From: an uncultured bacterium
Lineage (GTDB): Bacteria; Patescibacteriota; Minisyncoccia; Phycocordibacterales; Phycocordibacteraceae
Assembly: GCA_963759775.1 (NCBI GenBank)
Contig: CAVXAH010000001.1
Location: forward strand, 528,682-592,681
Length of the DNA stretch: 64,000 bases
Direction: 5' to 3'
Below the pieces are notes generated by a model. The model did not search any database and had not been told where the DNA came from. It saw only the letters and a list, made by a program, of their open reading frames with translations. Positions 3,223 to 23,092 of this stretch are shown here, in pieces. A program made the translations under genes and the position numbers. The first letter of the stretch is position 1, and every line of letters begins with the position of its first letter.

Positions 3223-3253
3223 GAAAACCCTTGTCTTTCAAGGGTTTTCTTTG
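3223..3253 (+). promoter_or_regulatory. terminator-like hairpin inside the 5' leader of the giant gene
   Basis: gaaaaccctt (3223-3232) pairs with aagggttttc (3240-3249) and is followed by tttg, 34 nt before GTG 3287. A second hairpin ttgaagg...ccttcaa lies about 60 nt further upstream. Confidence 0.35.
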
Positions 3254-3286
3254 AAACGGCGTAGTAGAATAACCTGTATACAAACT

Positions 3287-6200
3287 GTGAATAAGAACGT
3301 ACTAACTTCAGCTGCACTTTCGGTACGTACAGGAGTTCTCCTGACGCGGTTTTTTGCCCTCGCTCTAGCGGTCTTTTCTGTGCTATTTCCATACGGCGCC
3401 GTGCACGCAGCGGTTGGTGTTCCGGAAATTATAAACACACAAGGTCGCCTGCTTGATTCAAACGGAAATTTGCTCGGCGGCACGGGTACTAACTTCTGTT
3501 TCCGTTTCGCGCTCTATGACGATGCGACCGTCGGTGCACCAGACTCAAAAGTGTGGCCCGCAGGAACCCCCTCCACAATGTCGGTCTCCGTAAAGAACGG
3601 CGTGTTCAACGCAGGGGTCGGCGATACCGCGGCGGGAGGCGACACGCTTGACTACAATTTTCAAGACAACGATGCCGTGTATCTTTCCATTGAAGTTGCC
3701 GCGCAAATTTCTGGATCATGTACGGGCGTTACGTTTGAAACTCTTTCACCACGCCAACGAGTTGTCTCATCTGGTTTTGCGATCAACGCATCAACCGTTG
3801 GAGGATTCACACCGTCGCAAACCCCGTCGGGCTCAAACATTCCAGTTCTTTCAAGTGGACATCTCACGCTCTCCGGAACGAATCCGCAATTTAATGCGAG
3901 CGGTTCCAACACACTCACTTTGCAAGGTGGTGGCGGAACGGGTGCCGTGCAATTTTTCTCGTCATCAAACAGTTTGACTTCCGCGGGTGCTCTCACAATC
4001 GCGGGCGCGCTCACTGCAAATGGATCTGCCACGTCAACATTTGCAGGAGGCATTTCGCTCTCCTCCGGAAATATAAATCTTGCTTCCACCTTCGCATATC
4101 TGATCAACAATCTCCGCATCCTCGATGCAACAACACTCGGCTCCTCGGTCGTGAACTCCTCTCTCACCTCCGTTGGCGCGTTAAATGCGGGTTCCATCAC
4201 GAGCGGTTTCGGCGCAATTGACACGGGGGCGGACAACATCACGACAACAGGACTTGGTACCTTTGGGAATCTTCTTGCTACCGGAAGTAGCACGTTTCAA
4301 AACTTTACGGCGGTTAATGCAACCACGAGCCAAGCAACGACAACAAATCTCGCCATTTCAAGCATCGTTTCTTCTCTCCTCAAGACCAACGCATCAGGCG
4401 CAGTTGTGCCAGCTATTGCGGGCACTGACTACGCGACCTCTGCGGTAACCGCCATCGGCCCATTAGGCCAAACTGCCGACGGTCCTACCGTGACCCTTGC
4501 CTCTTCAACAAGCGTGACAAATGGACTCACTTCCGCGATCGCCGTGACTGGTTCAGGTGACACTCTTACGTTCACGCCAAGCCTCTCTGGAACACTGACG
4601 GTTCCTGGCGGAGGTACCGGCTCTACCACGCTCTCAGGAATCTTGCGAGGCAACGGCACGAGCGCGGTGCAAACACTTCTCATCGGTACTGGTCTTACCT
4701 TTGACGGCACCACCCTTTCTTCAACGGGAGGTGGTGGGGGCTCCGGAAATGTTTCTACCTCCAGTGTTCCAACGGTGGGGAATCTCGCATACTGGACCGG
4801 AAACGGAACTCCTTCAACACTCGGCGATGTTGCAACGACAACGCTCTCAGGAACCGGTGCCGTGAACGTTTCAAATTCTCCTATCATCATTGGCACTTCT
4901 CCTGCCGTCATCTCGCTCGGCACGGTCCCGGTTTCAAACGGCGGAACAGGGAATGCAATACTCACCGCAAACACCGTACTGCTTGGTAATGGCACGGGCG
5001 CCATTGCCACAACGTCAGCAGGGACGAACGGACAAACACTCGCACTCGTGAATGGTGTGCCGACGTGGACAGCAACCACAACTGCCGGCACAGGTCTTTC
5101 ATATTCGGGAGGTTCTTTCAACGTAAACACATCCCAAAACATCGCGACACTTTCAAACCTTACGACAAACGGTTTTGTTAAAACGGTCGGAGGAAACGGA
5201 ACACTCACGGTTGATACCAGCACATACCTCACGGGGAACGAAACGATTACGCTCTCGGGTGATGTCTCGGGAAGTGGAACAACCGCAATTTCAACGACTC
5301 TTGCCACCGTGAATGCAAACACGGGATCCTTCGGTTCTTCAACTCTCATACCTTCTTTTACCGTGAATGCAAAAGGTCTCATCACCGCCGCCTCAACCAA
5401 TGCGGTCATCGCACCTGCCGGAACACTGACCGGCACATCACTCGCTTCAAACGTGGTCTCATCGTCTCTCACCAGCGTCGGTACGATTTCTTCAGGAACG
5501 TGGAATGCAAGCACGGTCAGTGTTCCGTACGGCGGTACCGGCAACACCACCTTCACCACCAACGGTCTTTTGTATGGAAACGGAACAAGTGCGATTTCAG
5601 CAACGGCGGCAGGAGATCCTGGTGAACTCATTGTGGCGAATGCTTCAAGTGTTCCGGTCTTCCGCACGCTTTCAGGCGACGCCACTCTTTCTTCTGCGGG
5701 CGCACTTACGCTCGCAAACTCAGGCGTCACCGCATCCACCTACGGAAGCGCCTCTCAAGTTCCCGTTATCACGGTTGATGCAAAGGGAAGAGCCACCGGA
5801 ATCACGAACACGGCGATTGCAATCAATGCAAACCAAATCACTTCAGGCACACTTCCCGTTGCAAATGGCGGAACGGGGAATACAACACTCACTTCAAACG
5901 CCGTACTTCTTGGCAACGGCACAAGTGCCATCACCACCACCTCACCAGGAACAAATGGGCAAGTGCTCGCACTCGTGAACGGCACTCCAACATGGACTGC
6001 AACTTCCTCAATCAACAATGGGGTTACCTCGCTCACGCAAAATGGTGGAGGGTCTCCACAAACAGGAGCGCTGACGATTGCAACATCATCAGATACGAAT
6101 CTTCTTTTGAACGTAACCAATTCAGGAAGCACTTTTACTTTTACACCCGCATGGAGCGGTATTCTTGCGGTTAGTCGTGGAGGTACTGGAGCAGCGACCT

Positions 6201-9200
6201 TCACTACGAACGGTGTTTTGTATGGCAATGGCGGCTCAACCCTCTCGGTAACCTCCGTGGGCTCAGGAGGACAAGTGCTTATTGCCAACGGTTCAGGTAT
6301 TCCAACATTCACCTCTTTCTCGGGAGACGCAACCGTTGGAAGTGGGGGGTCACTTTCAATTTCAGCGGATGCCGTTGCGCTTGGTACCGATACGACTGGC
6401 AACTACATCGCCTCAATTACCGCAGGAGCGGGTCTCACGGGTGATACGGCAAGCGAAGCCGCTGTCGCGGCGCTTGCGGTGGGAGCAGGAGACGGAATTA
6501 TTGTTGGAGCAGATTCAATTACGATTGACTCAATCACGTCTGGCGTGACGGTGATATCGTCTGCAAACTCCGGTCTTGAAGTTACTTCAGGAGGTCTGCG
6601 ACTTCTTGGTGGTTGTGACGATAATGATATTTTGAAATGGAATTCGTCGTCGCAGGTATGGGCTTGTGACACTGATGAAGAGGGGAGTAGTTCTGGAAAT
6701 GTCTCCACCTCAACAACACCAAACATTGGTGATCTCGCGTACTGGACCGGAAACGGAACCCCTTCAACACTCGGTACAGTAGCAACGTCTTCACTCACGG
6801 CCGGTTCCGAATTTTCATACTCAGGGACGCTCGGCGCATTTGTTGGTGGGTCTTCAGGCACGCTCTCTCTTGCGACAAACGGCATCTCACTCACGAAGCT
6901 CGCACAAATTGCAGCGAACTCCATCCTTGGAAACACAACAGGTGTCACCGGCAATGTCACCGCTATTTCTACTTCAACTCTTGGCATTGCGCTCTCTGAC
7001 ACGACCGGCACATTAAGCGCATCTCGTGGTGGTACTGGATCCACAACCCTTTCGGGTATTTTGAGAGGCAACGGCACAAGCGCTATTCAAACACTCGTCG
7101 TTGGTTCAGGGCTCTTGTTTGATGGAACAACACTCTCAACGACTGGCGGAGGAGGATCAGGAAATGTTTCAACCTCTAGTGTTCCGACCGTGGGCAATCT
7201 TGCGTACTGGACCGGCAACGGAACGCCTTCAACACTCGGCGACGTTGCAACGACAACGCTTTCTACTTCAGGCGCTCTCTCGCTTTCTGCAAATCCAATT
7301 GTGATTGGTTCATCGCCAATCACGCTCTCCCTTGGAACGGTACCGGTAGCAAATGGTGGCACGGGCTCTACCACGCTCACGGGACTTTTGAAAGGAAATG
7401 GCACGGGAGCCGTTCAGTCTGCGGTTTCTGGTACCGACTACCAAGCACCCGGCGCATACATCACCGCACTCACCGGAGATGTCACCGCATCGGGTCCTGG
7501 ATCTGCGGCGGCGACACTTGCTTCAACCGGAGTCACCGCAACTTCGTACGGAAGCTCAACTGCAATTCCGTCATTCACCGTTGATGCTAAAGGAAGACTC
7601 ACCACCGCCTCAACCAACGCGGTCATCGCACCTGCCGGAACACTGACTGGCACATCACTCGCTTCAAACGTGGTGACGTCCTCATTGACCGCGGTTGGCA
7701 CACTCACCAGTGGTACGTGGAATGCGGGAACGATTGGAGTGGCGTATGGCGGTACCGGAAATAGCTCACTCACGACGAACGGCATTTTGTACGGGAACGG
7801 CACCTCGGCGGTTGGTGCGACAGCACCCGGAGATCCTGGCGAACTTATTGTCGCGAACGCTTCAAGTGTCCCTGTCTTCCGCACACTCTCTGGAGATGCA
7901 ACGCTCGCGTCTTCCGGTTCACTCACACTCGCAAATTCAGGAGCAACACCTGGCATTTACGGATCGGCATCGCTCGTACCCGTACTTACCGTGGACTCAA
8001 AAGGACGAATCACTTCAATCACAACCGCGACTGTATCAGGCGGTGGAGGGGGAGGGGGAACTGGAAACGTTGCAACATCTACGACAGAGACGGCAGGATT
8101 TCTTGCGTACTGGACATCAACCGGCGCTTCGCCAGCAACCCTTGGAAAAGTTGCGACCACAACCCTTACGGGAACGGGCGCCGTGAGCGTCTCAAACGCA
8201 CCGCTCATCATTGGCTCTACTCCTGCCGTTATTTCACTCGGCACGGTTCCGGTTTCAAACGGCGGAACGGGCTCCACCACGCTCGCATCCTCACAGCTTT
8301 TGTATGGATCAGGAACGAATGCGGTTCAAAGTGTTGCCACCACCACCATCACCGCCTCAAGTCCACTTTCTTTTGGAAGCGACCCAGTAGTCATTGGAAC
8401 GTCACCGTACACTCTTTCGCTCGGCACCGTAGGCATCGCGAATGGCGGAACCGGACTCACCGCAGTACCGACGAACGGTCAACTTCTTATTGGAAATGGT
8501 ACGGACTATACGCTCGCAACACTTACTGCAGGAAATGGTACTGCCGTTACGAACGGCTCAGGAACCATAGGTCTCGCGGTTCAACTTCTTGATGCCGCGG
8601 ACGGCATTGGAAACACCAGTTCGCGTTCCGGTCTTGAGTTTGGTGATATCGGCAACAATGAACTCACCCTTATCCAAGGCTGTGGTGACGGAGAAGTTCT
8701 TAAATTCTTTACTTCAAGTAAGGCGTGGGAGTGTTCGACGGACACAGGAGCCTCGCAAAACACATTCCTCAATGTAATCGCAGATGACGCGACAACTGCG
8801 GTCGCGGACGCGACGACCGACACCTTGCAACTCTTTGGTGGAAATGGTGTTTCTACGGTCGGTGACGCATCAAATGATCGCATCACTTTTAATCTTGGAA
8901 ATCTCACAAGCAATTGGGACCAGTCAGGTGCATTCAGTCTGCGGCTTTTGAACGCAGGTTCAAACTTGGTCATTCAAGAAAATGGAGGCGGTTCCGACAC
9001 GGCAACCATAGATGTTGCCGCCCTTTCAGGGAATCGTACCTACACCTTTGAAGGAAACTCAGGAAATATTTTGACTGATCAAAATGCATCGGGCTTTCTG
9101 GACAGTACCTATGTAAACTTTGCCGAAGCACCCTCGGCAGGAGACATCACGGGCTCTTTCTCAGGAGGACTTTTTGTTGGCGCAAATACCGTCGCACTTA

Positions 9201-12200
9201 GCACTGATACCACGGGGGATTACGTTACTTCAATCACAGCAGGAAACGGGCTCGGGGGAACAGGGCTTACGGGAGAAGGGTCAACACCAACTCTTTCCGT
9301 AAATGTAGGAGACGGACTCCAGCTTTCTTCAGATGCCGTCAATTTTGCGCTTCACACGACTGGTCCAGGACTTCAGGCAGATGGCAATGGCCTCTCTCTT
9401 ATTCGTACCTGTGGGGACGGAGAGCTTTTGAAATACACCGCAGCTTCCGGTTGGACTTGTGGATCAGACGCGGGAGCAGGGTCTTCGCCATTTGCCACGG
9501 CAGGGGGGCTCATTACCAAATCAACAGCAAGCGATCGACTTGAATTGCAATACGGCACCCCAGGCGATATTCAGTTTAAAATTACAAATGTTACGGCAAG
9601 TAATGACAGTGCACCGACGGCCGACGCAATGCAGATACTCCTCACGGGAGATGCAGAGGCAGATGCTATTACCACGGGTGGTGTTGATGGACTTTACATT
9701 AACGCGCTCTTTGGTGCAGTGACAGGAGACAACGTCGCCTTACTCCATCTTGACCTTGATACCGCAACCACCTCCTCACCAAGCGGAACGTTTGATGCAA
9801 TACGTATTGATGCTATTCCGGGTTCGGGAGCACAGGAAACGGCAATTGAAATCGGTTCAGGATGGGACAACATTTTGGACACAGGAAGCGTGGACATCAC
9901 CGGAACAGGAAATATTTCCGGTGTAAATGACCTCACGGTGGTGGGTACCGTAAAACTTACGGGGGCAGCATATGCAAACTGTAAAGGCACTGCCGCAAAC
10001 CAAGGAGCGCTTACCGTTGCCGCAGATGGCACGGTGGAGTGTACGGCAGACGACGGTGGTACCGGTACTTCATGGTCGTCACTCACGAACCCAAGCGGAA
10101 ACCTTGCTCTTGTTCACAACGAAAACAAAACGACGTTTACCTGGGACACGGTAGACACAACCGTTTCACCTTTTGATGGCATCACGTTTGCCATCAATAA
10201 CGATGCATCTGTTGATGCTCAAACGCAACGCATCGTCGTCATTAAAAACAATCTCGTTTCCGCCGGAGGTACCATCGAACGTCTTTTGGTACTTGATAAC
10301 GCCGACGGCGGTACGGTACCAACGGCTCTTGAGATTGGCGGATTCGGCGCTATCACGACCGCGATTGATGTCTCCTCTTCAACTATCGGCACCGCAATCG
10401 CTTTTGGTGCAAACGATATTATAGGTACCAATTTCTCAGTCACGGGTGGAACAGGAAATGTTATTACCTCCGGAGATATTGCCGTAAACGGTGGAGATAT
10501 TACTTCAACCAGCGACCTTACTCTTGATGCTCAAGATGGAACACCAACGATTTTCATTGCTAGTGGCGACAATCTACAACTTCAGTCAACCGGAAACATC
10601 CTCCTTGGCACCGGTCGCTTAGACGTTGCGTCGGCAGGGAACTTGAATATTGGTATCACGACCGCAACGGCCGTTGTGATTGGAAACGGCTCAGGAGACT
10701 CTTCCGTACAACTGCCAAGTCAATCAGTAGGCTCAACAGAGATTGTGGACAATGCTATTGGTCAAGCCGACATAACGGACGACTCACTTGATTTTGCAGA
10801 CTTCCAGGACGCTCTTGATCTTGATGCAAACACAACACTACTCTCAACGCTCACCGGTATCGGTCTTGATTATGCACTTTCACCAACGGGCGCTGGTACC
10901 ACCACGGCGTGGGAGATTACCCCAACTATTGCGAGTGGTGTTTCTCAAGAACTTCGTGGCATTCACATAGATCCGGTAACGACAAACGGAAACGCAGGAG
11001 ACTTTATTCAGGGTATTTTGATAGACAATATTACGGGCACCGCTTCCGTTGATACCGGAATCCACATAGGTACGGGATGGGATACGGGCATCCTTGTTGA
11101 TGGCGGGGGAGTCACTATCTCCGCCGGCGCTCTCGCGGTGAACTCTGACTCCATTACCTCCGACGGCACACTACTTATAGACTCAAGCGGTATCGTACGA
11201 CTTGGTTCAAACGACAATCTTGAGCTCCAAGGGTCAGGAAATTTACTTATCGCAGGCGCGAGCGGACGACTTGATGTGAATTCTCTCGCAACGCTCAATA
11301 TTGGTACCACCAATGCGACGGCGGTTGTGATAGGAAATGGAGCAAATACGACGAGCGTTACTATCACCACCACAGCAGCAGGAAATACGGCGCTCGTGGT
11401 GCCAGACCAATCCATTGGAAACGCAGAAATTGCTCTTGATACACTTGACTACGCACAGTTTGACGACTCCCTTGATCTTGATGCAAACACGACGCTTGCC
11501 TTTGCGGGGTTCAACCTCACACATAACTTAAACTCCACGGGAGATTTTCTCATACAGGATGCGGGTACCATCTTCGCACAATTCCTCGATGACGGCACCA
11601 TCACTTTTGGAAAAGCTTCCGGAGCAGGAACGATTAATGTTGGCGTCGGAACCGCAATTGACACTATTAATATTGGTACCGACGCGACCGCAAGTGATGT
11701 GGTGCGGATTGGTTCGTCAAATGCTGACCTCGCACTCACGGACGCACAGTGGTCTATCACCACCTCGGGACTCATCACCACCGCAGATGATATTGCGGTA
11801 AATGGGGGAGACATCACCACAACCGCAAGCACAGGAAATATTTTCAACGCAAACGCGGCAACGGTAAATATTGCAGGGGCCGCGACACTTTTCAATCTTG
11901 CGGACTCAACGACGGTGAAAACAATAGACATTGGCGGTGTCACGGCAGACGGTACGGACACTATCAATATTGCAACCAACGGGACATCAAACAGCGACAC
12001 TGTCACTATCGGAAATTCAAATGGGGGAACCTCAGTCGCGATCACGGGAGGTGATGCGTGGGGCATCTCAGCTACAGGTGTACTCACTCTTTCTACCGAC
12101 GCGTCACCGACGACTGCCATTCTCGCCGTTGATAGCGGATATACCAACTTTGCTGATATTGCCGACAATCATATTATCGGTACAACGCCAAACCTAGACT

Positions 12201-15200
12201 TTACCAACTTTGATGTGGTCGGTTCAACCGGTTCGGTCATCATTGATAACGCAGGGAACACAGGTTCTTTAACAATAGAAGGAACAAACCTAGATATCAA
12301 CTCTCTTGATTTTGTCGGTGCTGGAGCATTCACGACCGGATCAAATGGAAATCTTACGCTGACGCCACATGGTTCAGGTGACGTCATTATCAGCGTTGAC
12401 GCAAACACAAACGTTCAGCTCACTGGCGGCGCAGATGGTGCAAATGCACTCACGGTTGCGGCGGGTGACGTGGTGTTTTCTGACGGCGACTTTACACTTC
12501 TCAGTGGCGACTTTGATGTAACGCTTGATAATGGTGACGGTGCTGGAATAACTTCCGGCTCTGCCGCAACAGCGGACCTTCTCACTCTCGCCGTGACTGG
12601 TGTTGGCTCTGACGGACTCCAAATTAATGCAACACAGCTAGATGATGCGGACGCGACCGATACAACGCGTGCACTGCAGATTTCTGTCACCTCAAATTCA
12701 GGAGACGCAGACACGGTGTATGGAATCACCATAGACAATCTCACGGGGGGCACCGCGAATGAAACTGCACTTTCTATTGGTACGGGTTGGGATACCGGCA
12801 TTATCGTTGGTTCTGGCGGGGTAACTATTTCCTCAGGCGCACTTGCGGTCAATTCAGGCTCTATCACTTCCTCTAGTGGTTCAGGTCTTACCATCAACCC
12901 GATTGATTTCCTGTATCTTGCCTCAGGAGACTCACTCCAGCTTCAGGGTTCGGGCAATTTCTTACTCGGCACGGGTCGTCTAGACACCTCAGCGGGAGCA
13001 ACCCTTAACATTGGTACGACAAACGCTACGGCGATTACGTTTGGCAACGCATCAACTGAGAATTTAATAGTTACGACAAATGGCACCGGTGACTCGGAAG
13101 TACAGCTTCCAACAGGCTCAATAGGTTCAGGAGAAATTGCAAACGGTTCCATTACGCAACTAGACATCGCCGACGACTCTCTTGATTGGGAAGACTTTAA
13201 AGATGCCATGACACTTGATGCGGCAAGCACCATCACCTCTTCCTCAATAAACGGAACATCGCTTTCGCTGAATGTGTCTCCGGACGGTTCCGCTGGTGCT
13301 CCCATTGCATTTCAGGTTACGCCTACCTGGGGTGTAGACACCACCGACCAAACATTTGTTGGTATCAATATTAATCCAAGTACCAATTCAAATACCGACA
13401 GTGGCGATACTCTTATTGGTCTTCAAATCGCGGGTGTGACCGGTACGGTTGGCACAGAAACGGCGCTTCTTATTGGAAGCGGTTGGGACACTTCTATAAG
13501 TGCGGCAGGGAAGGTGGATGTGGGAGGAATTATTGAAGCAGGTTCAAGCAATATTACACTCACTAACAGCACCGGTCAGATTGTTGCGGGCGCATACGCG
13601 AGCCAATCTATTGATGGCGACGACATTGCGGCGTCTATTGCCGGAAGCGGTCTCATTTTGAACACGGCAACGACGCCGGATCAAATTGACATTGATCTTA
13701 TCAACATCGCAGACGCAACGGGTGTCTCAAGTTCAAACTCAGGACTTGAGTTTGGTGGTACTGCAAATGAACAATTAGGACTCCTGCGTGGCTGTGGCGA
13801 CGGACAGCTCCTCAAATGGGTATCGGCCACCTCCGAATGGCAGTGTTCGACCGACGTTTCTGCGGGTACACCGGCATTGAACCAGATTTCTGCCGCACTC
13901 ACCGAAGGTACACCACAAGACTCAAACGAAAACACCGTTCGATGGAACTGGGACTTTACCGGAGGTGGCGCAGCGGATGACTCCGGACTTGTTATTTCAG
14001 AATCCACGGCCTCAACGGCGGGTGAGCAGGATAAGAAATCTTTGTTGGAGATTATTACGCTCGCGGGGTCGCTCGCTTCGCCACTTCAGGTGACCGCAGG
14101 CGGAACAGACGTGGGCGACATATGGTTTGACCTTCAAGGAACCGCTGATTTTGAAATCCGAGAAAACGGTCGCGCACTCGCACGCTTCAACGATGATGCA
14201 AGTATTTATCTTGGAGAAGCAACCACAACATCCTTGATTGATATTGGTGGATCAGCCTCAGACACTATATATATAGCAACCAGTACCGCCGCAGGGGATA
14301 CCGTGGTTATTGGCAACAACCACAGCGCTACCACACTCGTGCTTGATGCGGGTACCGGTGCAAGTGCGATTCAGCTTGGGAACAGTGCCACAGCACACGG
14401 TATTAAGATTGGCACGGGAGCAGCGGCACAAACGGTCACTCTTGGATCCCAAAACTCCACTTCCTCCACAACTATTCAGTCTGGGACCGGCGATCTGTTT
14501 GTGGTTTCAACAGATCAGCTCACGGTGGATGCTGTCGGCATCCTTGAGCTCAATTCCTCTGGTGGCGTAATCTCCATCGGAAACGACGCTGTTGCTCAAA
14601 ACATCAACATTGGAACTGGCGCTGCGGCAAGAACTATCACGGTCGGTAATGGTACTGGCGCCACTGGGTTACGACTTAACACGGGTACGGGTGGTCTCAT
14701 TGCAAACACCCTCACAGGAGGATTTATCTTTACTACCTCATCTACCACCGCACAGGCGATTAATATAGATGTAACAGGTACCGGTGGGGGAATAGATATT
14801 GATACGACCGACGGCGCCTTCTCCCTAACTACGGGCGGAGCAACGAACGGCGACATCAACTTCTTGGCAGGAGACGTGTTTGACATTGACTCTGTTGATT
14901 CACTTTCCCTTAACGCTTCAGCGGGAGTGATAAACATTGGTGATGACGTTGTTTCGCAGGCAATAAATATCGGTACCGGTGGCAGTCGCAGCATTCTCAT
15001 TGGTAATACGACGCCAAATACAGCAATCACTCTTAACTCAGGTGGAGCGGGGGACATTGCCGCAAACTCAGCAGCAACACTCACTTTGGATTCAGTAGGA
15101 GTTCTTGAACTCAATTCCTCGGGAGGAATAATTTCAATAGGAAATGATAACGTCAATCAAAATATCCGTATTGGCACCGCCGGCAACCGCACCATCACTC

Positions 15201-17350
15201 TTGGCGTCACTGGCGGCTCAACCGCACTAAGCCTTATTTCCGGCACGGGTGATATCACTCTCTCTTCCGATGACGATGTCACCATTAACGGAGCGGGAGC
15301 AACGGCAGTTATTGGCATTGGTACGGCATCGGTTGCCCAAACCATTAATATTGGAAATGTAACAGGAGCTACTCTGGTCAACATTGATGCGGGAACGGGC
15401 GGCATCACGCTGGATTCAACCGGTGTTGGCGATATTTTGCTCAATTCTTCGGACACGATTCTCATGGACTCCGCAAACGCGCTCTCCATCAACTCCTCTG
15501 GTGGAGTGATCTCCATCGGCAACAACGCCGTCAACCAAAACATCAACCTCGGCACCGCCGGCAACCGCACCATCACTCTTGGCGTCACTGGCGGCTCAAC
15601 CGGTCTCGCTCTTAACGCAGGTACGGGCAATATCGCACTCACTACCTCCTCAACCGGAGACATCACCCTCAACTCCACGGACACAGTGTTGATCGACTCT
15701 GCTGGTGTCTTGCAGCTCAACTCCTCTGGTGGAGTGATCTCCATCGGCAACAACGCCGTCAACCAAAACATCCAAATCGGCACCGCCGGCAACCGCACCA
15801 TCACTCTTGGCGTCACTGGCGGCTCAACCGGTCTCGCTCTTAACGCAGGTACGTCCGACATCACTCTTTCCTCAGACGACGACATCTCTATTAACGGGGG
15901 TGGAGCAAGTGCCGCCATTGACATTGGAACCATTGGAACCGCTCACACCATCACCCTCGGCAACTCCACGGGCGCCACCTCGCTCGCGCTTAACACCGGC
16001 ACCGGTCTTCTCACTGTCGGCGCAAACGCCATCGCCCACACCATCGTGATCGGCAACAAAACGGGCGACTCCTCAGTCCTCATTGATTCAGGGACCGGCA
16101 ACATTGATATTGGTACCTCAACGGCGAAGACTATTCGCGTGGGAAATGCGACAGGTGCAACAGCTCTGATACTTGCCGCAGGTACCGGCGATCTCGCCCT
16201 CACCTCAACCGACCTCCTCACTCTTGATTCCGCAAACGCGCTCTCTATCAACTCCTCCGCTGGCGTGATCTCCATCGGCAACAACGCCGTCAACCAAAAC
16301 ATCCAAATCGGCACCGCCGGCAACCGCACCATCACTCTTGGCGTCACTGGCGGCTCAACCGGTCTCGCTCTTAACGCAGGTACGTCCGACATCACTCTTT
16401 CCTCAGACGACGACATCTCTATTAACGGGGGTGGAGCAAGTGCCGCCATTGACATTGGAACCATTGGAACCGCTCACACCATCACCCTCGGCAACTCCAC
16501 GGGCGCCACCTCGCTCGCGCTTAACACCGGCACCGGTCTTCTCACTGTCGGCGCAAACGCCATCGCCCACACCATCGTGATCGGCAACAAAACGGGCGCC
16601 TCCTCAGTCCTCATTGATTCAGGGACCGGCAACATTGATATTGGTACCTCAACGGCGAAGACTATTCGCGTGGGAAATGCGACAGGTGCAACAGCTCTGA
16701 TACTTGCCGCAGGTACCGGCGATCTCGCCCTCACCTCAACCGACCTCCTCACTCTTGATTCCGCAAACGCGCTCTCTATCAACTCCTCCGCTGGCGTGAT
16801 CTCCATCGGCAACAACGCCGTCAACCAAAACATCCAAATCGGCACCGCCGGCAACCGCACCATCACTCTTGGCGTCACTGGCGGCTCAACCGGTCTCGCG
16901 TTGAATGCAGGATCAGGCAATGCTGTTGTTACGAGCGCAACCATAAACCTTGCCGCCAGCGCAAATCTCCAGATAAATGGAGCAAACGGTGCAACCGCGA
17001 GTTGTTCCGGAACACTCTCTTCAACCATTACTACCACAAAAGGAATGGTCACCACCCACGCATGTACTTCAGACCAGCGGCTGAAGTCGAATTTTGGTGA
17101 GTTTAGCAATGTCCTAAATCGAATACAAGATATTCGAGGTGGTACATTTTATTACAACGACCTGTATCGTCAGTTGAGCGGGGACACGGAGAATTTTGAC
17201 ATACACTCAGGCTTTTTAGCGCAAGAGGTTCAGAGAACTTTTCCTGAGCTTACAAAAAGTTCAAGTATCACGGAATTATTGCGTTCGCGGAAGATGGGGT
17301 TACGCCGCACACAATTGGATTATCCAAAATTGCTCGTGGCCATTGCCTAG
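3287..17350 (+). CDS. giant secreted Gly/Thr/Ser-rich repeat protein (~4,687 aa) with C-terminal tail-fibre/peptidase S74-like intramolecular chaperone domain
   Basis: The frame is uninterrupted for 14.06 kb. GTG 3287 gives [41 protein letters not shown]|AVG, a signal or anchor. It contains many internal repeat modules. The C-terminus reads SDQRLKSNF...[14 protein letters not shown]...[10 protein letters not shown]. The track start TTG 3155 was rejected (see notes). Confidence 0.85.
15488..16889 (+). repeat. in-frame tandem repeats inside the giant gene (228-nt older unit, then 531-nt unit x2.2 at near-identity)
   Basis: The unit starts atcaactcc at 15488, 16247 and 16778 (equivalent position 15716 in the first 531-nt copy, which begins ctcaactcc). 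Positions 15738-16246 and 16269-16777 differ at one base (a16068 vs c16599). 16778-16889 repeats the first 112 nt. Confidence 0.9.
17069..17347 (+). other. peptidase S74-like / intramolecular chaperone auto-processing domain (domain of the giant CDS)
   Basis: S-D-x-R-L-K-x-N, then GFLAQEV..FPEL, then DY.KL. These are the hallmark motifs of the endosialidase and tail-fibre C-terminal chaperone domain. Confidence 0.6.
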
Positions 17351-17692
17351 GCATCCAAGGAGACTCGAATGCAAAAAGTAAATACGCCACCCAAGTCCTC
17401 GACTCACCGCCTTGGTGTCGCATTGAATCTCGTCACATGCGCTTGGCTCTGTTCAGTCCCATATCTCCGCATTGAGTCAAAGGTAAATGCTCGAGCAACA
17501 GTTCACGACGAAAGGACTTACCGTGAACGGCGCGACGACACTCAATGGCACGGTCTCTTTTAAGGGGCAGTCTCTTTTGCAAAACAAGTAGAATTCCTCG
17601 TCGCACCGACCTTTAACAAAGACACGGGCGGATTTGCGGTTGTTCAAGAAGGAGACCAGGAAGTACGCATTTCATTCTCCGAGCCGTATGCC
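17351..17692 (+). pseudogene. frame-broken linker between the giant ORF and the 17564-18199 ORF
   Basis: There is no long ORF here, but protein-like pieces appear in several forward frames. One is LTVNGATTLNGTVSFKGQSLLQNK (17517-17588). It continues in another frame as VEFLVAPTFNKDTGGFAVVQEGDQEVRISF (from 17588). Confidence 0.4.
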
Positions 17693-18199
17693 GTGCAGCC
17701 AGTCGTAACAGCTTCTATGACCTTTGAGGAGGGCGACTTGGTGGCGAGCGCAGACGCCGATGTCCTTTTCGCCTCCGATATTCGCTACTTAGTGATGAAG
17801 AAAGATTCAACCGGCTTCACTATCCGCCTCAACAAAGCTGCTCCAAGAGACATTCGATTCTCCTGGGTTGCACTTGCTATTAAAGACGCAAACGTCTCGT
17901 GGAGCCTTCACGAAGGACTTTCTCCCGTCATACCTCCAGCAAACCCAACATCGCCACCAGCTCCAGAGCTGACCCCAGAACCCACACCAATAGATGAGCC
18001 AACACCTCCTCCCGCAGAAGAACCCGTCGCGACAAGTACGCCACCAATGAGCGAGCCCGAACCGGAACCCGCTCCAGAGCCTGCACCCGAACCAACTCCT
18101 GAACCTGAACCAACTCCTGAACCTGCGCCCGAGCCAGCACCGGAACAAACTCCAGAACCAACTCCAGAACCTGAGCCAGCTCCAGAGCCAGCGCCGTAA
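17693..18199 (+). CDS. C-terminal beta-domain plus Pro/Glu/Ala/Thr-rich tail; probably the displaced C-terminus of the giant protein
   Basis: The frame is open from 17564 and is the same phase as the giant ORF. ...GFTIRLNKAAPRDIRFSWVALAIKD is followed by about 80 aa of PEP/PAP/PTP repeats. There is no credible start or RBS of its own (GTG 17693 only). Confidence 0.5.
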   Translation: MQPVVTASMTFEEGDLVASADADVLFASDIRYLVMKKDSTGFTIRLNKAAPRDIRFSWVALAIKDANVSWSLHEGLSPVIPPANPTSPPAPELTPEPTPIDEPTPPPAEEPVATSTPPMSEPEPEPAPEPAPEPTPEPEPTPEPAPEPAPEQTPEPTPEPEPAPEPAP

Positions 18200-18205
18200 T
18201 CGCGT

Positions 18206-18547
18206 ATGAAATTAACTTCATTGCACGTCGCTTACACCGCAGGACTTATCGCGGCACTCGTCATCGTTGGTCTCGGATGGTTTTGGTTTTCTACTTCCCA
18301 TGAAGACGAGACCGCGCGCGTTGCGCGCGCGGTCGCAGAGCTCGCAATCGTCCCCGATGAGATTCCCATCATTACGACCGTTACTGACCCCACAAAACTC
18401 GCCGACACCCCACTCGCAGGCGAAGCAAAGGTGGGGGACAAGGTACTTTTCTACCAAAACGCCAAACGTCTGATCCTCTACCGTCCTTCCGAGAATCGCA
18501 TTGTTGATATTGTGCCTTTTAAAATTGGCGTAACGCCCTCGCCATGA
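18206..18547 (+). CDS. hypothetical N-terminally membrane-anchored protein
   Basis: 113 aa with a single TM (AYTAGLIAALVIVGLGWFWF). It starts 6 nt after the previous stop. I recognise no domain. Confidence 0.55.
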   Translation: MKLTSLHVAYTAGLIAALVIVGLGWFWFSTSHEDETARVARAVAELAIVPDEIPIITTVTDPTKLADTPLAGEAKVGDKVLFYQNAKRLILYRPSENRIVDIVPFKIGVTPSP

Positions 18548-18566
18548 CGTATCAGCATCTTTCCCC

Positions 18567-18593
18567 AATTAACGAGGTCCGACCTCGTTAATT
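18567..18593. repeat. REP-like palindrome, copy A (3' flank of RAYT gene)
   Basis: aattaacgaggtc-c-gacctcgttaatt has perfect 13-nt arms. The central base is inverted relative to copies B and C. Confidence 0.8.
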
Positions 18594-18597
18594 TACG

Positions 18598-19230
18598 CTA
18601 GTCTTCAATTTCTTTTTGGAGCCACTCAAAGCCTTCAAAATCTTTTCTATATTCTCTTGGTCCACCAAAAAAATCAAGAAAGAAACTTTTATTTACGAAA
18701 GGATACATATTAGTTCCGAGTACGTAATCACGGTAACTACTCCACGGATAATCCTCCAGTTTTTCTCCGCGCGCGAGTGCATCAATCGGGTTTTTATGGA
18801 TGTAGTGGGGGATATACATAAACTGCGCATCCCGCTCAATCAATACCGCTTTAAACTTTCCTTGGAAAAGAGGTCCCACGCGTTCGTTCTTCTTGTTGAA
18901 ATACATGGTGTACCCGGTACATACTTTTTGCATAAATTTAGAAATCCCACCCTCTTCTATTTGACGTAACAGTAAATGGAAATGATTCGACATTAGAGCG
19001 AAGGCCAAAATTTCTACAAGCTCTTTTTCATAACGAGGTCGGACCTCGTTAATTTCCTTATTGAGCAGATAAGTAGTGTTGTTCGCCGCGTTGGACGTAT
19101 TAAATGTCTCAAGCGAATTGACGAAACGAGCATACTCTTTCGGTGTTTGGAATATAAAACGTTTTTCAACTCCACGATTGAAAACATGATAGATTTCTCC
19201 CGCAACGAGCGAAGGTTTCTGCATATACAC
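18598..19230 (-). CDS. REP-associated tyrosine transposase (RAYT, IS200/Y1-like)
   Basis: 210 aa. The motifs are YHVFNRG, LMSNHFHLLL (HUH) and YIHKNP (catalytic Tyr helix). Confidence 0.75.
   Translation of the reverse strand: MYMQKPSLVAGEIYHVFNRGVEKRFIFQTPKEYARFVNSLETFNTSNAANNTTYLLNKEINEVRPRYEKELVEILAFALMSNHFHLLLRQIEEGGISKFMQKVCTGYTMYFNKKNERVGPLFQGKFKAVLIERDAQFMYIPHYIHKNPIDALARGEKLEDYPWSSYRDYVLGTNMYPFVNKSFFLDFFGGPREYRKDFEGFEWLQKEIED
19030..19053. repeat. REP-like palindrome, copy B (inside the RAYT coding sequence)
   Basis: ataacgaggtc-g-gacctcgttaat. On the coding strand it encodes ..INEVRPRYE.. in frame. Confidence 0.75.
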
Positions 19231-19235
19231 ATTCT

Positions 19236-19258
19236 ATAACGAGGTCGGACCTCGATAA
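19236..19258. repeat. REP-like palindrome, copy C (5' flank of RAYT gene)
   Basis: ataacgaggtc-g-gacctcgataa, located 6 nt upstream of the RAYT start codon. Confidence 0.75.
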
Positions 19259-19297
19259 AGGTTAGGGAAAGTGATGGTATGGTATTGAGAGCGGCGT

Positions 19298-20596
19298 ATG
19301 AGGCATTTCATTCTTATTTCAAGAGCATCGTTGCTCCTTTTCGGCATTCTTTTCTTTGGCGTACTGGCGCATGCGCAACAAGAAATGACCGGAACGAATT
19401 TTACGGTTTCAACGCCAGTTATCACGCAAGGCGGGGTTCGCTCCACCTCGGCAAGCTTTGAGCTCTATACCTCTCACGGCCAGCTCTCAAGTTCGGAGTC
19501 AACGAGCGCGAGTTTTATTGGTCGTGGCGGATTCCTCCATTTTCCCGTTGCCACAACACCCACTCTGTCAGCGACCGCGGGCGACCAACAAGTGATGCTT
19601 TCGTGGACCGCCTCGGTTGGTACGCTCGCGCGTATCAATGATTATCAAGTCGGTGTAGGAACGGTCTCTGGCGGACCTTATACCTTTCAGTCGGTAGGAG
19701 AAGTTCTCCTCTTCACTAAGAACGGCCTCACCAATGGAACGACGTATTATTTCGTGGTGCGCGGAATGGCGGGAACACTCGCTCTTTCAGAATCAAATCA
19801 GGTAAGCGCAACACCTTCTGGTGTAGCACCTCCTGGTGGTGGAGGCGGTGGTGGCGGAGGAGGAGGCGGTGGAGGTGGATCTGGCAGTATGAAAATTTCA
19901 GGTCTCGCGTCGCCCGGCGCATCCGTAACGCTTCTTAAAGATGGTTCAGTGGCCGCAACGACACCTGCCGACCCGAGCGCAAGTTGGTCAATTACGCTTA
20001 ATAATCTGAACGCGGGTATTTATTCTTTCAGCGCGTACGCCTCGGATACGACAGGACTCCAATCTTCTACGGTCAACTTTACGCAGTCCGTTACCTCTGA
20101 TGCTGAGACAGAGGTTACTAACATCTTTCTCTCTCCTACCATCGGCAAAAGCCACAAGCAGATTAAACAGGGTGAGACGATTACCTTCTTTGGTCTCACA
20201 GCGCCGCAGTCGGACGTCGCGCTCTTCGTTCACTCAGACCAGGAGTTTGTTGAGAAAATTAAAGCAGGAGTCAATGGTGCGTGGGTAAAAGCTTTTAACT
20301 CAGCATTCCTTGAGCTTGGCGACCACGCGGCACGGTCTCAAAGTTCGAAAACCAATCAGCTTTCAACCTACAGCCCCTCGGTTGCCTTCGTTGTGGGGAA
20401 CACTTCACTTCCAGAAGATGGTCTGTGCCGCCGCTCGGACCTTAACTGTGATGGAAAAGTAAACCTCACAGACTTCTCTATACTTCTTTTCTTTTGGGAC
20501 CAGACGAGCCCGGCGAACGCGCGCGCGGACATCAACATTTCCGGACGCGTTGATATTACTGACTTCTCTATACTCCTCTATGACTGGACCGGCTAA
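19298..20596 (+). CDS. secreted FN3 + Ig-like protein with C-terminal dockerin repeats
   Basis: Signal peptide MRHFILISRASLLLFGILFFGVLAHA|QQ. An FN3-like segment (LSATAGDQQVMLSW...TTYYFVV) is followed by a 14-Gly linker and two Ig-like segments. The C-terminus carries two dockerin repeats, DLNCDGKVNLTDFSILL and DINISGRVDITDFSILL. Confidence 0.7.
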   Translation: MRHFILISRASLLLFGILFFGVLAHAQQEMTGTNFTVSTPVITQGGVRSTSASFELYTSHGQLSSSESTSASFIGRGGFLHFPVATTPTLSATAGDQQVMLSWTASVGTLARINDYQVGVGTVSGGPYTFQSVGEVLLFTKNGLTNGTTYYFVVRGMAGTLALSESNQVSATPSGVAPPGGGGGGGGGGGGGGGSGSMKISGLASPGASVTLLKDGSVAATTPADPSASWSITLNNLNAGIYSFSAYASDTTGLQSSTVNFTQSVTSDAETEVTNIFLSPTIGKSHKQIKQGETITFFGLTAPQSDVALFVHSDQEFVEKIKAGVNGAWVKAFNSAFLELGDHAARSQSSKTNQLSTYSPSVAFVVGNTSLPEDGLCRRSDLNCDGKVNLTDFSILLFFWDQTSPANARADINISGRVDITDFSILLYDWTG

Positions 20597-21698
20597 AAAT
20601 CTGCTCAAAAAATCCATCGGCATTTTCCTTGCCGTATTCTTTGCGCCGCATATGGTATCTGCGGCGACGCTGATTGGCGTTTCTTCTGTGTCGGCTATTG
20701 AAAAGGGAGAAACCGTTCCTATAGAGTGGTATCTGGACACAGAAGGAGACACTATTAATGCAGTTGAGCTCGGGCTTGTATTTTCTGCAGAGACTCTTGA
20801 CTTGACCGCGGAGCCAGGTCGCTCGCTGATTTCACTTTGGGTGAAAAGCCCCTCAGCAAACAACGAACTCGGACTCGTGACTTTGGTCGGAGGCGCACCG
20901 GGTGGACTCACGGGCGTGGTGCCGCTTTTCCGGACAAACGCAACGGGAGTTGTGGAGGGTCCCGCCGTGTTTGCGCTCACGCCCGACTCTCGAGTGTATT
21001 TGCACGACGGGAGCGGCACCGAAAAAGAGGTTGTGCTTCCACAGTTCCAACTATCGGTTGTTCCCGCACAAAAGCCCACCATTATTTCAAAGACGCACCC
21101 AGACCAAAACGCTTGGTATCAAAAGACGAACGTAGAACTTGCGTTCCCGTATGATCCGACGAAGAAGTACGGCTACACCTTTACAAATGATTTCAATAGT
21201 TTCCCCGGAGATGTGCCGCAGGAAACTATGGGCACGGTCTCGTATAAAAATATTTTTGATGGTGTCTACTATTTCCGACTCTCCGAAAGAGCCGCAGAGG
21301 GAACCGTACAAGATAAGGGAGTGTATCGCGTCCAAATTGACCGCACGCCACCCGAATCCTTCACACCACTTATTGCAACCAGCACCGACCTCTACGACGG
21401 AGAGTCCTTTCTTTCGTGGAGTACGGTTGATAAGACTTCCGGCATCGCATATTACCGCGTGCGGACCGGGTTCTTTGGCTTTTGGCGAGATGCCACCTCG
21501 CCACAAAAGCTTTCACGACCTCTCGTAGGGGACACGGTTCGCGTCCGAGCGTATGACACGGCGGGAAATTATTTTGATGCGTTCGCTCCTTTCCCTGGAT
21601 ATGTGAGTGTCCCGATCTTCTATACACTTATTGGTCTTCTTGGAGCACTCCTTGCCCTGTGTGGGGTGTATAGTCGTAGGAAAGACGTTCATTCATGA
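20580..21698 (+). CDS. membrane-anchored cohesin-like domain protein (paralog 1)
   Basis: ATG 20580 gives the signal MTGPAKNLLKKSIGIFLAVFFAPHMVSA|A and overlaps the upstream stop by 17 nt. The N-terminus is a cohesin-like beta-domain. A shared THPDQNAWY...YRVQIDRTPPE module follows. There is a C-terminal TM. Confidence 0.55.
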   Translation: MTGPAKNLLKKSIGIFLAVFFAPHMVSAATLIGVSSVSAIEKGETVPIEWYLDTEGDTINAVELGLVFSAETLDLTAEPGRSLISLWVKSPSANNELGLVTLVGGAPGGLTGVVPLFRTNATGVVEGPAVFALTPDSRVYLHDGSGTEKEVVLPQFQLSVVPAQKPTIISKTHPDQNAWYQKTNVELAFPYDPTKKYGYTFTNDFNSFPGDVPQETMGTVSYKNIFDGVYYFRLSERAAEGTVQDKGVYRVQIDRTPPESFTPLIATSTDLYDGESFLSWSTVDKTSGIAYYRVRTGFFGFWRDATSPQKLSRPLVGDTVRVRAYDTAGNYFDAFAPFPGYVSVPIFYTLIGLLGALLALCGVYSRRKDVHS

Positions 21699-23092
21699 AT
21701 ACATACCGTTTTTCGGTCTCTACCTTTTCTGCTTCGCTTTTTGCGCTAGGCCTCCTCTCGTTCCCTGGTCTCACCTTCGCTGCTGATATATATGTATCTC
21801 CCGCGACCGGTACGTACGCCGTCGGGTCTACTTTTACCGTAACGCTCCGGATGAATACGGCAGGGCAGGCGGTCAACACCGGAGAAATAACGGCTTCGTA
21901 TTCCACCGGCACACTTGAGCTTGTAGGATCCGCACAAGGATCTACTTTTTCGCTTGCTGCGCCAGGGTCACCGCGCCGAGGATCGGGCAGCGTATATTTT
22001 GGAGGCGGCATTCCGAGTCCGGGCTACACGGGTAGTTCGGGTTCGCTCGGCACACTTACGTTTAGAGTGAAGTCAGCAGGAACAGGAACCGTCTCACTTT
22101 CAAGTGGTAAGGCACTTCTGAATGATGGGTTTGGGACCGACGCATTTAAACAAGCATCAGGGGGTACGTTCACCCTGGTCTCTTCTGCCGCCCCAACACC
22201 ATTTAGTGCGCCGCAAGTCTCTTCTCCAACGCACCCAAACCAAAATAGCTGGTACGCCACTTCCTCCCCCGTCTTTACCTGGACACTCCCTGCGGGTGCG
22301 GACATGGTGAGCTTTGAGTTTGATCAGAAGAACAACACCGTTCCCGATACGAGTCCGGACCAATCGGGAGGGAACGCAACACTTTACACAGAGATTGAAG
22401 ATGGTGTCTGGTATTTCCACATCAGAGCGCGCGTAGGAGGGGTGTATGGCGCAACGACCCACTATCGCGCTCAAATAGACACCACGCCACCTGAAAAGTT
22501 CGCTCTCGGTGTCTCAACTGACCTCGCAGGCATCCCTACCATAAGCTTCGCCACGACGGACGCCCTTTCGGGTATACACCACTATGAGCTTGCGGTAGAC
22601 AATCTCACTATTGATAAAAGTGCGACCTCCTCAATTACTATTTCCAAAATAACCCGCGGGCGTCACACGCTCTCCGTGATAGCATACGACCATGCAGGAA
22701 ACGCCGAAGAAGCACAGGCGGTAGTTTCTGTAACAAAGACCTTTATGATATCCCTCAACATCATCATCTGGCTCATCATCTTCAACATCATCATAACGAT
22801 CCTCCTCCTCATCATCCTCTGGCTTGAAATACAAGAGCGCAGACGAGAGGGGCCGATAAGTGAACGCGTGAAGCGCGCAAAGAGAGATATTGACGAGAGC
22901 CTCAGCAGGCTTCGCATCCAAGCGCAGACTCGCTTGAGCACCATGTCTGATGTTCCGGCAAAAGACATTGTCTCAAAAGAAAAGATACTTGAAGATGAGA
23001 TGGCAGGAATTCTGCTTGAAGCAAAATCCCATATTGATAAAACCATCAATGACTTGGGAGAAATTCCTGAAAGGGGAGACGAAAGTAAGTAA
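21695..23092 (+). CDS. membrane-anchored cohesin-like domain protein (paralog 2)
   Basis: ATGA overlap with paralog 1. It has a signal peptide and the cohesin-like segment GSTFTVTLRMNTAGQAVNTGEITASY...LTFRVKSAGTGTV. It then carries THPNQNSWY...YRAQIDTTPPE, a TM and a charged coiled tail. Confidence 0.55.
   Translation: MNTYRFSVSTFSASLFALGLLSFPGLTFAADIYVSPATGTYAVGSTFTVTLRMNTAGQAVNTGEITASYSTGTLELVGSAQGSTFSLAAPGSPRRGSGSVYFGGGIPSPGYTGSSGSLGTLTFRVKSAGTGTVSLSSGKALLNDGFGTDAFKQASGGTFTLVSSAAPTPFSAPQVSSPTHPNQNSWYATSSPVFTWTLPAGADMVSFEFDQKNNTVPDTSPDQSGGNATLYTEIEDGVWYFHIRARVGGVYGATTHYRAQIDTTPPEKFALGVSTDLAGIPTISFATTDALSGIHHYELAVDNLTIDKSATSSITISKITRGRHTLSVIAYDHAGNAEEAQAVVSVTKTFMISLNIIIWLIIFNIIITILLLIILWLEIQERRREGPISERVKRAKRDIDESLSRLRIQAQTRLSTMSDVPAKDIVSKEKILEDEMAGILLEAKSHIDKTINDLGEIPERGDESK

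Follow-up and report, generated by a model that had tools for sequence, protein, structure and literature searches.

The 64-kb stretch of bacterial DNA analysed here (64,000 nucleotides (nt), hereafter the window) carries a cluster of surface-protein genes between typA and the 3' end of the transfer-messenger RNA (tmRNA) gene ssrA. The cluster encodes a giant fibre-like protein, a beta domain with a Pro-rich tail in an open reading frame (ORF) of its own, a small anchored protein, a dockerin protein and two cohesin-type membrane proteins, coh1 and coh2 (Table 1). This cluster is an old, compositionally native and clade-specific occupant of a slot next to ssrA, in which a conserved cohesin–dockerin platform goes with a giant adhesin gene of exchangeable type. 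As a new form, it belongs to two known kinds of system, namely non-cellulosomal cohesin–dockerin systems and tail-fibre-like proteins with a Peptidase_S74 (S74) domain. Taken as a whole, and with the mechanism proposed below included, it probably represents the chromosomal surface-apparatus genes of a Parcubacteria-type Candidate Phyla Radiation (CPR) bacterium, lodged in a variable slot between typA and the ssrA 3' end.

Four further Patescibacteria assemblies contain the same kind of unit (a giant, a small anchored protein, a dockerin protein, then two to four cohesin membrane proteins), and the giant is not of one type throughout. Since the gene set recurs together in other genomes, the clustering pointed out in an earlier note on this DNA, made from the sequence alone, is not due to chance. 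In the closest relative, found by a homologue search with the cohesin protein (L162, CAYVUT010000001.1 of assembly GCA_964455225.1; coh2 63% identical), the order is a 4,555-aa giant, the small anchored homologue, the dockerin protein, coh1 and coh2, then smpB, ftsH, recG and the malic enzyme gene, the length and C-terminus of this giant being uncertain as its gene ends just after an N run (a scaffold gap at ~3200-3349). In L162, the giant and the small anchored protein are separated by additional secreted proteins (one collagen-like of 239 aa, one with a double fn3 and one of 178 aa), and the RAYT-like transposase gene and the GIY-YIG gene of the window are lacking, the position of the latter being taken by an unrelated 123-aa gene. 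Its flanking proteins are the closest to those of the window (ftsH 86%, recG 81%, malic enzyme 79% and smpB 72% identity). Against the 72-86% of these flanks, the island proteins share 55-70% (the available fibre repeats 36-46%), which supports the suggestion of a fast-evolving locus. The cluster is old, because it is shared, beside smpB, with this sister genome whose housekeeping proteins are only ~80% identical.

Besides L162, a 5.5-kb contig (P0003; coh2 68% identical) carries a small transmembrane (TM) protein, Y1_Tnp (- strand), the dockerin protein, coh1 and coh2 in the order of the window. More diverged versions (L164/165, L167 and L170; coh2 32-41% identical) combine a giant ORF with one or two genes for small anchored proteins, one for a dockerin protein and between two and four for cohesin-TM paralogues, and partial versions are found in L163 and L168. 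Orthologues of the 113-aa anchored protein, which has no Pfam or NCBIfam match, occupy the same cluster position in L162 (55% identity), L163 (60%), L164/165 (49%), L167 (41%) and L170 (51%); those of the dockerin protein reach 70% (L162), 73% (L163) and 46% (L164, L170). As for the giants, the window and L162 have the S74/lectin fibre, the L167 giant shares the lectin/Pro-rich C-terminus, and those of L164 and L170 are an unrelated repeat protein without S74. In these comparisons, the giant is exchanged between at least two unrelated types, and the contents of the locus make up a conserved gene cluster, present also at other genomic positions in distant Patescibacteria, and not a loose collection.

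To place the cluster within its own clade, we compared ten loci with TypA at 78-84% identity (L001-L004, L007, L082 and L084-L087, among them CAZJKG01 and Ga0182030_10000056), each inspected within +/-10 kb of typA. In all ten, typA and smpB adjoin at a distance of 0.5-5.4 kb, versus 21.1 kb in the window, so that the synteny check put forward in the earlier note marks the region as an insertion relative to the housekeeping frame. After typA/smpB follow ftsH and, wherever the fetched DNA extends that far, recG; three of the ten have smpB in the opposite orientation, and Rfam located a tmRNA, arranged as in the window, in each of the five loci scanned (L001, L002, L003, L004 and L007). The typA–smpB gaps of the ten relatives gave no tblastn match to any island protein. 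They hold a cfa-like methyltransferase gene (four loci), pyrE/pyrF and genes for a 3-methyladenine glycosylase, a LysM protein and an FAD oxidoreductase, none of which occurs in the window. With gap genes that differ and the cluster absent in 10/10 relatives, the interval at the ssrA 3' end is therefore a variable slot in this clade.

The compositional deviation that the earlier note had named as a check on the island did not materialise. GC content is flat across the region, and a tetranucleotide signal, at 3.5-4.2 where the flanks do not exceed 2.05, does not extend beyond the fibre gene and is best explained by an extreme amino-acid composition, Thr, Gly, Ser and Ala making up 52% of the residues. 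Once its amino acids are taken into account, the fibre chooses among synonymous codons as the flank model predicts (z -1.1 to +1.1), and the fibre, dockerin and cohesin genes alike use host-type synonymous codons. Modest codon-usage deviation is seen only in the RAYT-like gene (GC content at third codon positions (GC3) 0.40, z 3.8), the GIY-YIG gene (GC3 0.38, z 2.9) and the Pro-rich ORF (z ~3-4 for this group) and is no larger than that of one flank gene. Recent horizontal transfer was considered and rejected on the native codon usage, the tetranucleotide signal not being counted as evidence. In addition, Pfam and NCBIfam detected no integrase or other phage gene among the cluster proteins, the region holds no repeat of the tmRNA 3' end of at least 12 nt, and scans of IMG/VR viral contigs returned no relatives of the fibre base or coh2. 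The cluster thus appears, from codon usage and its occurrence in relatives, to have been inherited vertically within a small clade and not to be freshly acquired.

The earlier note had also described everything from typA to the tmRNA/smpB pair (3287-23092) as secreted or membrane-anchored, leaving aside a RAYT transposase and a small GIY-YIG gene, and both coordinates and contents agree with our Pfam and hydrophobic-segment scans. An N-terminal signal or anchor was detected by the latter in the fibre, the 113-aa protein, the dockerin protein and coh1, while the N-terminus of coh2 is signal-peptide-like by eye and below the scan threshold; both coh1 and coh2 have a C-terminal TM helix. One caveat to the all-secreted description is the beta-domain ORF, which has no signal peptide of its own because it corresponds to the C-terminal part of the fibre ORF in L162. 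The GIY-YIG gene falls just past the end coordinate of 23092. For the rest of the window, Pfam confirmed the housekeeping context, with ftsH, recG, malic enzyme, ribonucleotide reductase, lepA, a class-I aminoacyl-tRNA synthetase (aaRS), murJ, tsaD, ftsZ, ftsA, a trxB-like gene and others. The supposed CPR origin holds as well: the best TypA matches, which point to a CPR/Parcubacteria-type bacterium, are labelled Saccharibacteria (an automatic label), Patescibacteria group, Kaiserbacteria, Adlerbacteria or unassigned, and among species-representative genomes and JGI metagenomes nothing exceeds 84% identity to the window TypA. The cluster amounts to ~3% of a genome of ~0.6 Mb.

Table 1. Features of the surface-gene cluster and its borders (positions within the window)
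Feature	Position	Strand	Remarks
typA/bipA	1094-2884	+	84% identity to Patescibacteria TypA; left housekeeping boundary
Giant fibre gene	3287-17350	+	4,687 aa from GTG 3287; in-frame TAG at 17348
Cys-loop motif copies	6614-6676, 8681-8743, 9410-9469, 13793-13855	+	within the giant ORF
Beta-domain/Pro-rich ORF	17570-18199	+	H-type-lectin-like domain ~17663-17872, then PEPxP tail
Small anchored protein	18206-18547	+	113 aa; N-terminal TM segment
RAYT/IS200-like unit	18567-19260	-	Y1 transposase gene 18598-19230 between 21-nt palindromes
Dockerin protein	19298-20596	+	432 aa; signal peptide, fn3, poly-Gly linker, Ig-like (Big_6), C-terminal Dockerin_1
coh1	20550-21698	+	cohesin-like type-I membrane protein 1; probable start ATG 20580
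coh2	21695-23092	+	cohesin type-I membrane protein 2; Pfam Cohesin at 21812-22114
GIY-YIG nuclease-family gene	23107-23421	-	Pfam GIY-YIG 3e-13; between cluster and tmRNA
tmRNA (ssrA)	23486-23926	-	Rfam RF00023, 79.7 bits; 3' end towards cluster; right boundary
smpB	23975-24418	-	Pfam SmpB 2e-43; housekeeping boundary

The giant fibre opens, at 3287-3790, with a hydrophobic signal or anchor (aa 15-43) followed by a conserved immunoglobulin (Ig)-like "base" domain. Its N-terminal ~200 aa are 58-73% identical to the N-termini of many, mostly contig-truncated, Patescibacteria proteins (all matches in this homologue search being at most 871 aa long), and these relatives of the base span several classes (Uhrbacteria, Colwellbacteria, Nomurabacteria and others). 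An AlphaFold2 (AF2) model of the base domain, built from a 45-sequence alignment, is a beta-sandwich with a predicted local distance difference test (pLDDT) score above 90 for model residues ~10-125; it is a generic Ig-like sandwich, and a comparison with the PDB gave no specific match. The shaft of ~4,300 aa falls into three repeat zones on the repeat map, contains GGTG/LAYWTG repeat motifs and includes short repeat stretches that match phage tail fibre proteins (tblastn), while a PDB sequence search with the fibre gave no match. Recent internal duplication, as postulated earlier, is real in one case: positions 15734-16368 match 16265-16899 (offset 531 nt) with one mismatch in 635 positions, as part of a tandem duplication (15734-16899) with a period of 531 nt (177 aa) and ~2.2 copies whose protein repeats are 99% identical. 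Older segmental duplications in the fibre retain 69-78% identity. We also observed a Cys-loop motif, C-G-D-G-x-L-L-K-W-(7-8 residues)-W-x-C-x-x-D, in four copies (aa 1110, 1799, 2042 and 3503), distributed over repeat zones one and two and the beginning of zone three; no family match to the motif was found.

Close to its C-terminus, the fibre carries Peptidase_S74 (PF13884) at 17069-17251, with 39.7 bits against a cut-off of 22 (E 6e-10) and coverage of profile positions 1-56 of 58. The motif T-S-D-Q-R-L-K provides the Ser and, five residues on, the Lys typical of this family, which we take to be the catalytic residues by analogy with endoNF. The domain is likewise found by Pfam in the orthologues of L162 (7e-15) and L081 (3e-10). 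In its Ser...Lys motif, in its repeat modules with their matches to phage tail fibre proteins, and in a conserved N-terminus ahead of a variable remainder, the fibre resembles S74-containing phage tail fibres and tailspikes (endosialidase endoNF, the T5 L-shaped fibre pb1) and the cellular "tail fiber domain-containing proteins". It differs in being ten-fold longer than most fibres, in its Sec-type N-terminal signal or anchor, in its location on a cellular chromosome without phage genes and in that S74 is not terminal in the L162 orthologue, where a lectin-like domain and a Pro/Thr-rich tail follow. The layout of the L162 giant is reminiscent of eukaryotic MRF, which has an internal S74 domain. 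In S74 fibres, a complete chaperone domain measures ~130-150 aa, sits at the C-terminal end and is released once the trimer has assembled; the window ORF ends 92 aa past the Ser.

In the window, the passage from S74 to the lectin-like end is disrupted (junction 17348-17586, + strand). The in-frame TAG at 17348 is followed by a shift at ~17400 to a frame carrying TGA and TAA, until a 17-nt imperfect duplication (17553-17586), whose removal gives the exact L162 length, brings back the fibre frame. By tblastn, homology to L162 is not interrupted at these stops (38.5% identity over 405 aa, E 2e-82), and in L162 the same segment is a continuous ORF that runs through a helical (coiled) linker into the lectin-like domain and the Thr/Pro-rich tail. 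A reassigned stop codon was considered for TAG 17348 and rejected, since the homologous frame is broken by TGA and TAA as well and every other gene fits table 11.

The junction could be broken by either real decay or an assembly error. If decay were at work, the C-terminal chaperone/lectin part of the fibre would be a pseudogene and the cluster no longer fully functional here, a scenario that we regard as somewhat unlikely. It is suggested by what has accumulated within 240 nt where the orthologue is continuous (the TAG, two or more frame changes, additional stops and the 17-nt insertion), by the atypical nature of such clustered lesions plus insertion for homopolymer errors, and by a window ORF that stops 92 aa after the S74 Ser, compared with ~130 aa of chaperone plus linker in L162. 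Yet the 14-kb ORF upstream and the 630-nt lectin/Pro-rich ORF downstream are intact and conserved (70% to L162), and L081 likewise has its S74 and lectin ORFs in different frames, 15 nt apart. Besides, an assembly error is plausible at the fibre junction because lepA and the class-I aaRS gene are frameshifted too, which renders assembly indels credible. In lepA (41608-43412; frameshift at ~42440-42495), GTP_EFTU/D2 lie in one ORF and EFG_III/EFG_C/LepA_C in the next; in the aaRS gene (48417-50185, - strand; frameshift at ~49000-49170), the tRNA-synt_1 profile is divided at ~216/290; and murJ (39954-41592) is possibly split by a frameshift as well. These split housekeeping genes suggest indel errors in the assembly or genuine gene decay.

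The beta domain itself has counterparts inside the giant ORFs of two relatives, at their C-termini (70% identity in L162 and 47% in L167), and the tail of its ORF consists of Pro-rich tandem repeats. Pfam H_lectin (PF09458) matches all four members of the beta-domain family (best 7.4e-6). Besides the Helix agglutinins discussed below, the top Foldseek matches of the AF2 model comprise SLL-2, discoidins and the C-terminal domains of phage tailspikes or pyocin fibres, and a profile search against PDB sequences yielded chance matches only. The domain is probably H-type-lectin-like: a weak, full-length Pfam match in four family members and the fold-level matches of the model suggest that it may resemble the H-type lectins (the agglutinin of Helix pomatia/aspersa, discoidins and SLL-2 from coral) as well as the knobs at the C-terminal end of phage tailspikes, and it departs from the H-type lectins by a sequence identity of ~15%. 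A Peptidase_G2-type chaperone, suggested for the pre-lectin region of the L167 giant by a look at the sequence, was not backed by Pfam.

Turning to the putative platform, the dockerin protein matches Dockerin_1 at 20435-20575 (26.5 bits versus a Pfam cut-off of 22.9), whereas its Big_6 and fn3 matches remain below the cut-offs. It contains both Ca-loop motifs of the two-segment type, DLNCDGKVNLTD (aa 381) and DINISGRVDITD (aa 411). A PDB sequence search with this protein returned mostly poly-Gly linker artefacts. coh2 consists of a signal peptide, a cohesin module (32.1 bits against a Pfam cut-off of 24.1), Ig/FN3-like domains, a TM helix and a charged cytoplasmic tail of ~85 aa. coh1, with a signal peptide, a divergent cohesin-like domain, two Ig/FN3-like domains and a C-terminal TM helix, has no Pfam match of its own and is homologous to coh2 over its whole length (BLASTP 1e-25; hhalign 100% probability, E 1e-57); the start of coh2 overlaps the stop of coh1 (ATGA). 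PDB sequence searches with coh1 and coh2 found no match, while a profile of the coh2 family gave weak matches to PDB cohesins and hits to FN3-like modules at 8e-8 to 4e-5. At E<=1e-3 the coh2 family comprises 7,332 cluster representatives, and at E<=1e-30 it still has 1,186. A further member, on a Doudnabacteria contig (L166, 7985-12598), is followed by three type-IV-pilin-like (N_methyl) genes and not by the dockerin/giant set. In L167, a Hainich groundwater Patescibacteria contig, a 2,838-aa SpvB/RHS-repeat/TcdB-like (toxin-complex-like) protein is encoded directly after the cohesin genes (11392-19908), with a Y1 transposase nearby.

Cohesin–dockerin pairs classically assemble extracellular enzyme complexes, which raises the alternative of a general envelope or nutrient-capture structure (an S-layer-like coat or a cellulosome-like glycan-binding scaffold) instead of host attachment. 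The FN3-like and Ig-like modules resemble those of glycoside hydrolases, the lectin-like domain could bind free or self glycans, and the very large coh2 family would suit a general role. However, neither Pfam nor NCBIfam recognised a catalytic or carbohydrate-active enzyme domain in any cluster protein, there is a single dockerin protein and one cohesin per anchor where a cellulosome would combine a multi-cohesin scaffoldin with dockerin enzymes, and the partner is always an exchangeable giant fibre- or adhesin-like protein, which fits recognition better than structure. We therefore consider this alternative unlikely. The cluster does share with known cohesin–dockerin systems (the cellulosomes of Clostridia and Ruminococcus, and non-cellulosomal modules in all three domains of life) a type-I dockerin with two Ca loops on a secreted protein, cohesins on cell-anchored proteins and adjacent, partly overlapping genes. 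It differs in having no enzymes, no multi-cohesin scaffoldin and no S-layer homology (SLH) or sortase anchoring, each anchor combining a single cohesin with a C-terminal TM helix and a cytoplasmic tail. Of the two cohesin-like domains, one has diverged too far to be recognised by Pfam, and the set is linked to a giant fibre gene in a CPR host. In the library that we searched, no paper dealt with cohesin or dockerin modules of CPR bacteria.

Support for a surface assembly exported by Sec comes from the domain content, and we propose the following mode of action. All parts of the cluster would be exported by Sec. In the membrane, coh1 and coh2 would capture the dockerin protein by Ca-dependent cohesin–dockerin binding; joined by the small anchored protein, they would make up a fixed platform. 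The fibre would trimerise from its C-terminal S74 chaperone domain and cleave itself at the Ser of SDQRLK, while its conserved N-terminal base would hold it at the cell or the platform. The variable shaft and the lectin-like end might then contact glycans on a partner (host) cell, and recombination between repeats would alter the length and sequence of the shaft. The pairing of a conserved base with a shaft and an end that vary is the pattern of recognition fibres, and it is plausible that the cluster serves as a host-attachment apparatus; what may strengthen the host-interaction role proposed in the earlier note are the tail-fibre-like and lectin-like domains. Going one step further, and only tentatively, we can envisage that Parcubacteria-type CPR bacteria have a conserved membrane platform of cohesin–dockerin type, built of the small anchored protein, a single dockerin protein and two to four single-cohesin TM proteins and dedicated to mounting exchangeable giant adhesins, be they S74/lectin tail-fibre-like trimers or beta-helix-type giants; in L167, the toxin-complex-like giant is found directly after the cohesins. 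Such a platform would constitute the host-recognition organelle of an episymbiont, whose host range would be set by giant swapping and repeat recombination.

Several points weigh against a surface apparatus of this kind at this locus. Every functional step (binding, cleavage, host contact) is read from domain homology, and the fibre carries neither dockerin nor cohesin in our domain and motif scans, its connection to the platform being one of gene neighbourhood. Its C-terminal part is interrupted in this assembly. Even in an intact fibre, cleavage by S74 would detach the lectin-like end from the shaft because the S74 site is internal, which fits awkwardly with a lectin tip. The window copy of the beta domain scores below the H_lectin cut-off (E 0.0084; 16.7 bits versus 24), and its AF2 model is of moderate quality (pLDDT 63.7), the top Foldseek matches, Helix agglutinins, being at E ~1e-3 with template modelling scores of 0.48-0.58. 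With regard to the slot, the L162 cluster is placed by smpB, as typA upstream of the giant is not readable there, and the ten relatives may hold the cluster elsewhere in their genomes, because they were inspected around typA.

The gene in the middle of the cluster encodes a Y1_Tnp transposase (32.3 bits versus a Pfam cut-off of 23), which stays below the RAYT equivalog threshold (NCBIfam REP_Tyr_transpos NF047646, 44.7 bits versus 80). A 21-nt perfect palindrome, TAACGAGGTCNGACCTCGTTA, occurs at 18570-18590, 19031-19051 and 19237-19257, so that it brackets the gene and is present once inside it, and nowhere else in the 64 kb (0 copies expected by chance); it may be a repetitive extragenic palindromic (REP)-like or IS200-end-like hairpin. 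The unit is thus similar to RAYT/IS200 elements in its Y1 transposase fold and in being bracketed by identical hairpin palindromes, and dissimilar in its sub-threshold RAYT score, in the lack of further palindrome copies in the window and in the presence of Y1_Tnp also in a diverged relative. Homologues at 35-41% identity were seen within a few kb of typA, on either side, in L010, L016, L084, L087 and L161. The earlier note had counted this mobile-element gene among the signs of a fast-evolving locus, for which it is weak evidence: the P0003 contig, with a coh2 of only 68% identity, has Y1_Tnp at the same place, and the transposase therefore appears to be a long-term resident and not an active element.

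The ssrA 3' end is a classic integration site, and the position of the cluster directly downstream of it, its absence at the locus in ten relatives, the tail-fibre-like repeats and S74 domain of the fibre, and the codon usage of the RAYT-like and GIY-YIG genes (z 2.9-3.8) would all suit a recently acquired mobile island or prophage remnant that brought in a phage tail fibre gene; this is very improbable, given the lack of integrase, other phage genes and a repeated tmRNA end, the native codons of the fibre, dockerin and cohesin genes, the absence of relatives of the fibre base and coh2 from IMG/VR, the age of the cluster and its chromosomal setting in many CPR contexts. In other words, the cluster agrees with ssrA-associated genomic islands in its position and in a locus content that differs between relatives, and disagrees with them in having no integrase, no duplicated ssrA end as a direct repeat and no foreign codon usage, and in being shared with a diverged sister genome.

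Some observations concern the surroundings of the cluster. A hairpin resembling a terminator follows typA (2965-2980), and promoter and terminator scans of the region were uninformative. The tmRNA was seen by Rfam (441 nt versus a 374-position model) and missed by ARAGORN, and it is probably divergent or insertion-bearing. Just after ftsH lies a tRNA-Ile gene with the anticodon TAT (UAU; 27235-27308), an uncommon bacterial route to AUA reading. Directly after the RNase P RNA (36994-37364), the segment 37482-39859 encodes a 575-aa multi-pass membrane protein without a Pfam match, the sole sizeable unannotated membrane gene outside the island, and then a tetratricopeptide repeat (TPR) protein.

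Giant surface proteins of ultra-small bacteria have been reported before, as the "dockerin-type" giants of Omnitrophota (West-Roberts et al., bioRxiv 10.1101/2023.11.21.568195). These share with the present case a very large, repetitive extracellular protein in a small-genome and probably host-dependent bacterium, a proposed role in attachment and a tendency of assemblies to break inside such genes. The dockerin of the window, by contrast, resides on a separate small protein, and its giant is S74 tail-fibre-like, far below 30,000 aa and devoid of enzymatic domains.

In summary, the present work describes a conserved cohesin–dockerin gene cluster with an exchangeable giant adhesin gene beside ssrA of a CPR bacterium. 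It cautions that a striking "island" next to ssrA may be old and compositionally native. How CPR bacteria other than Saccharibacteria recognise and attach to their hosts is largely unknown, and the literature that we found on CPR attachment concerns type IV pili. If the linkage of the genes is functional, the cluster would offer defined parts for such a process, namely a dockerin and two cohesins, an autoproteolytic Ser and a lectin-like domain, and it would extend cohesin–dockerin assembly from enzyme scaffolds to the display of adhesins.

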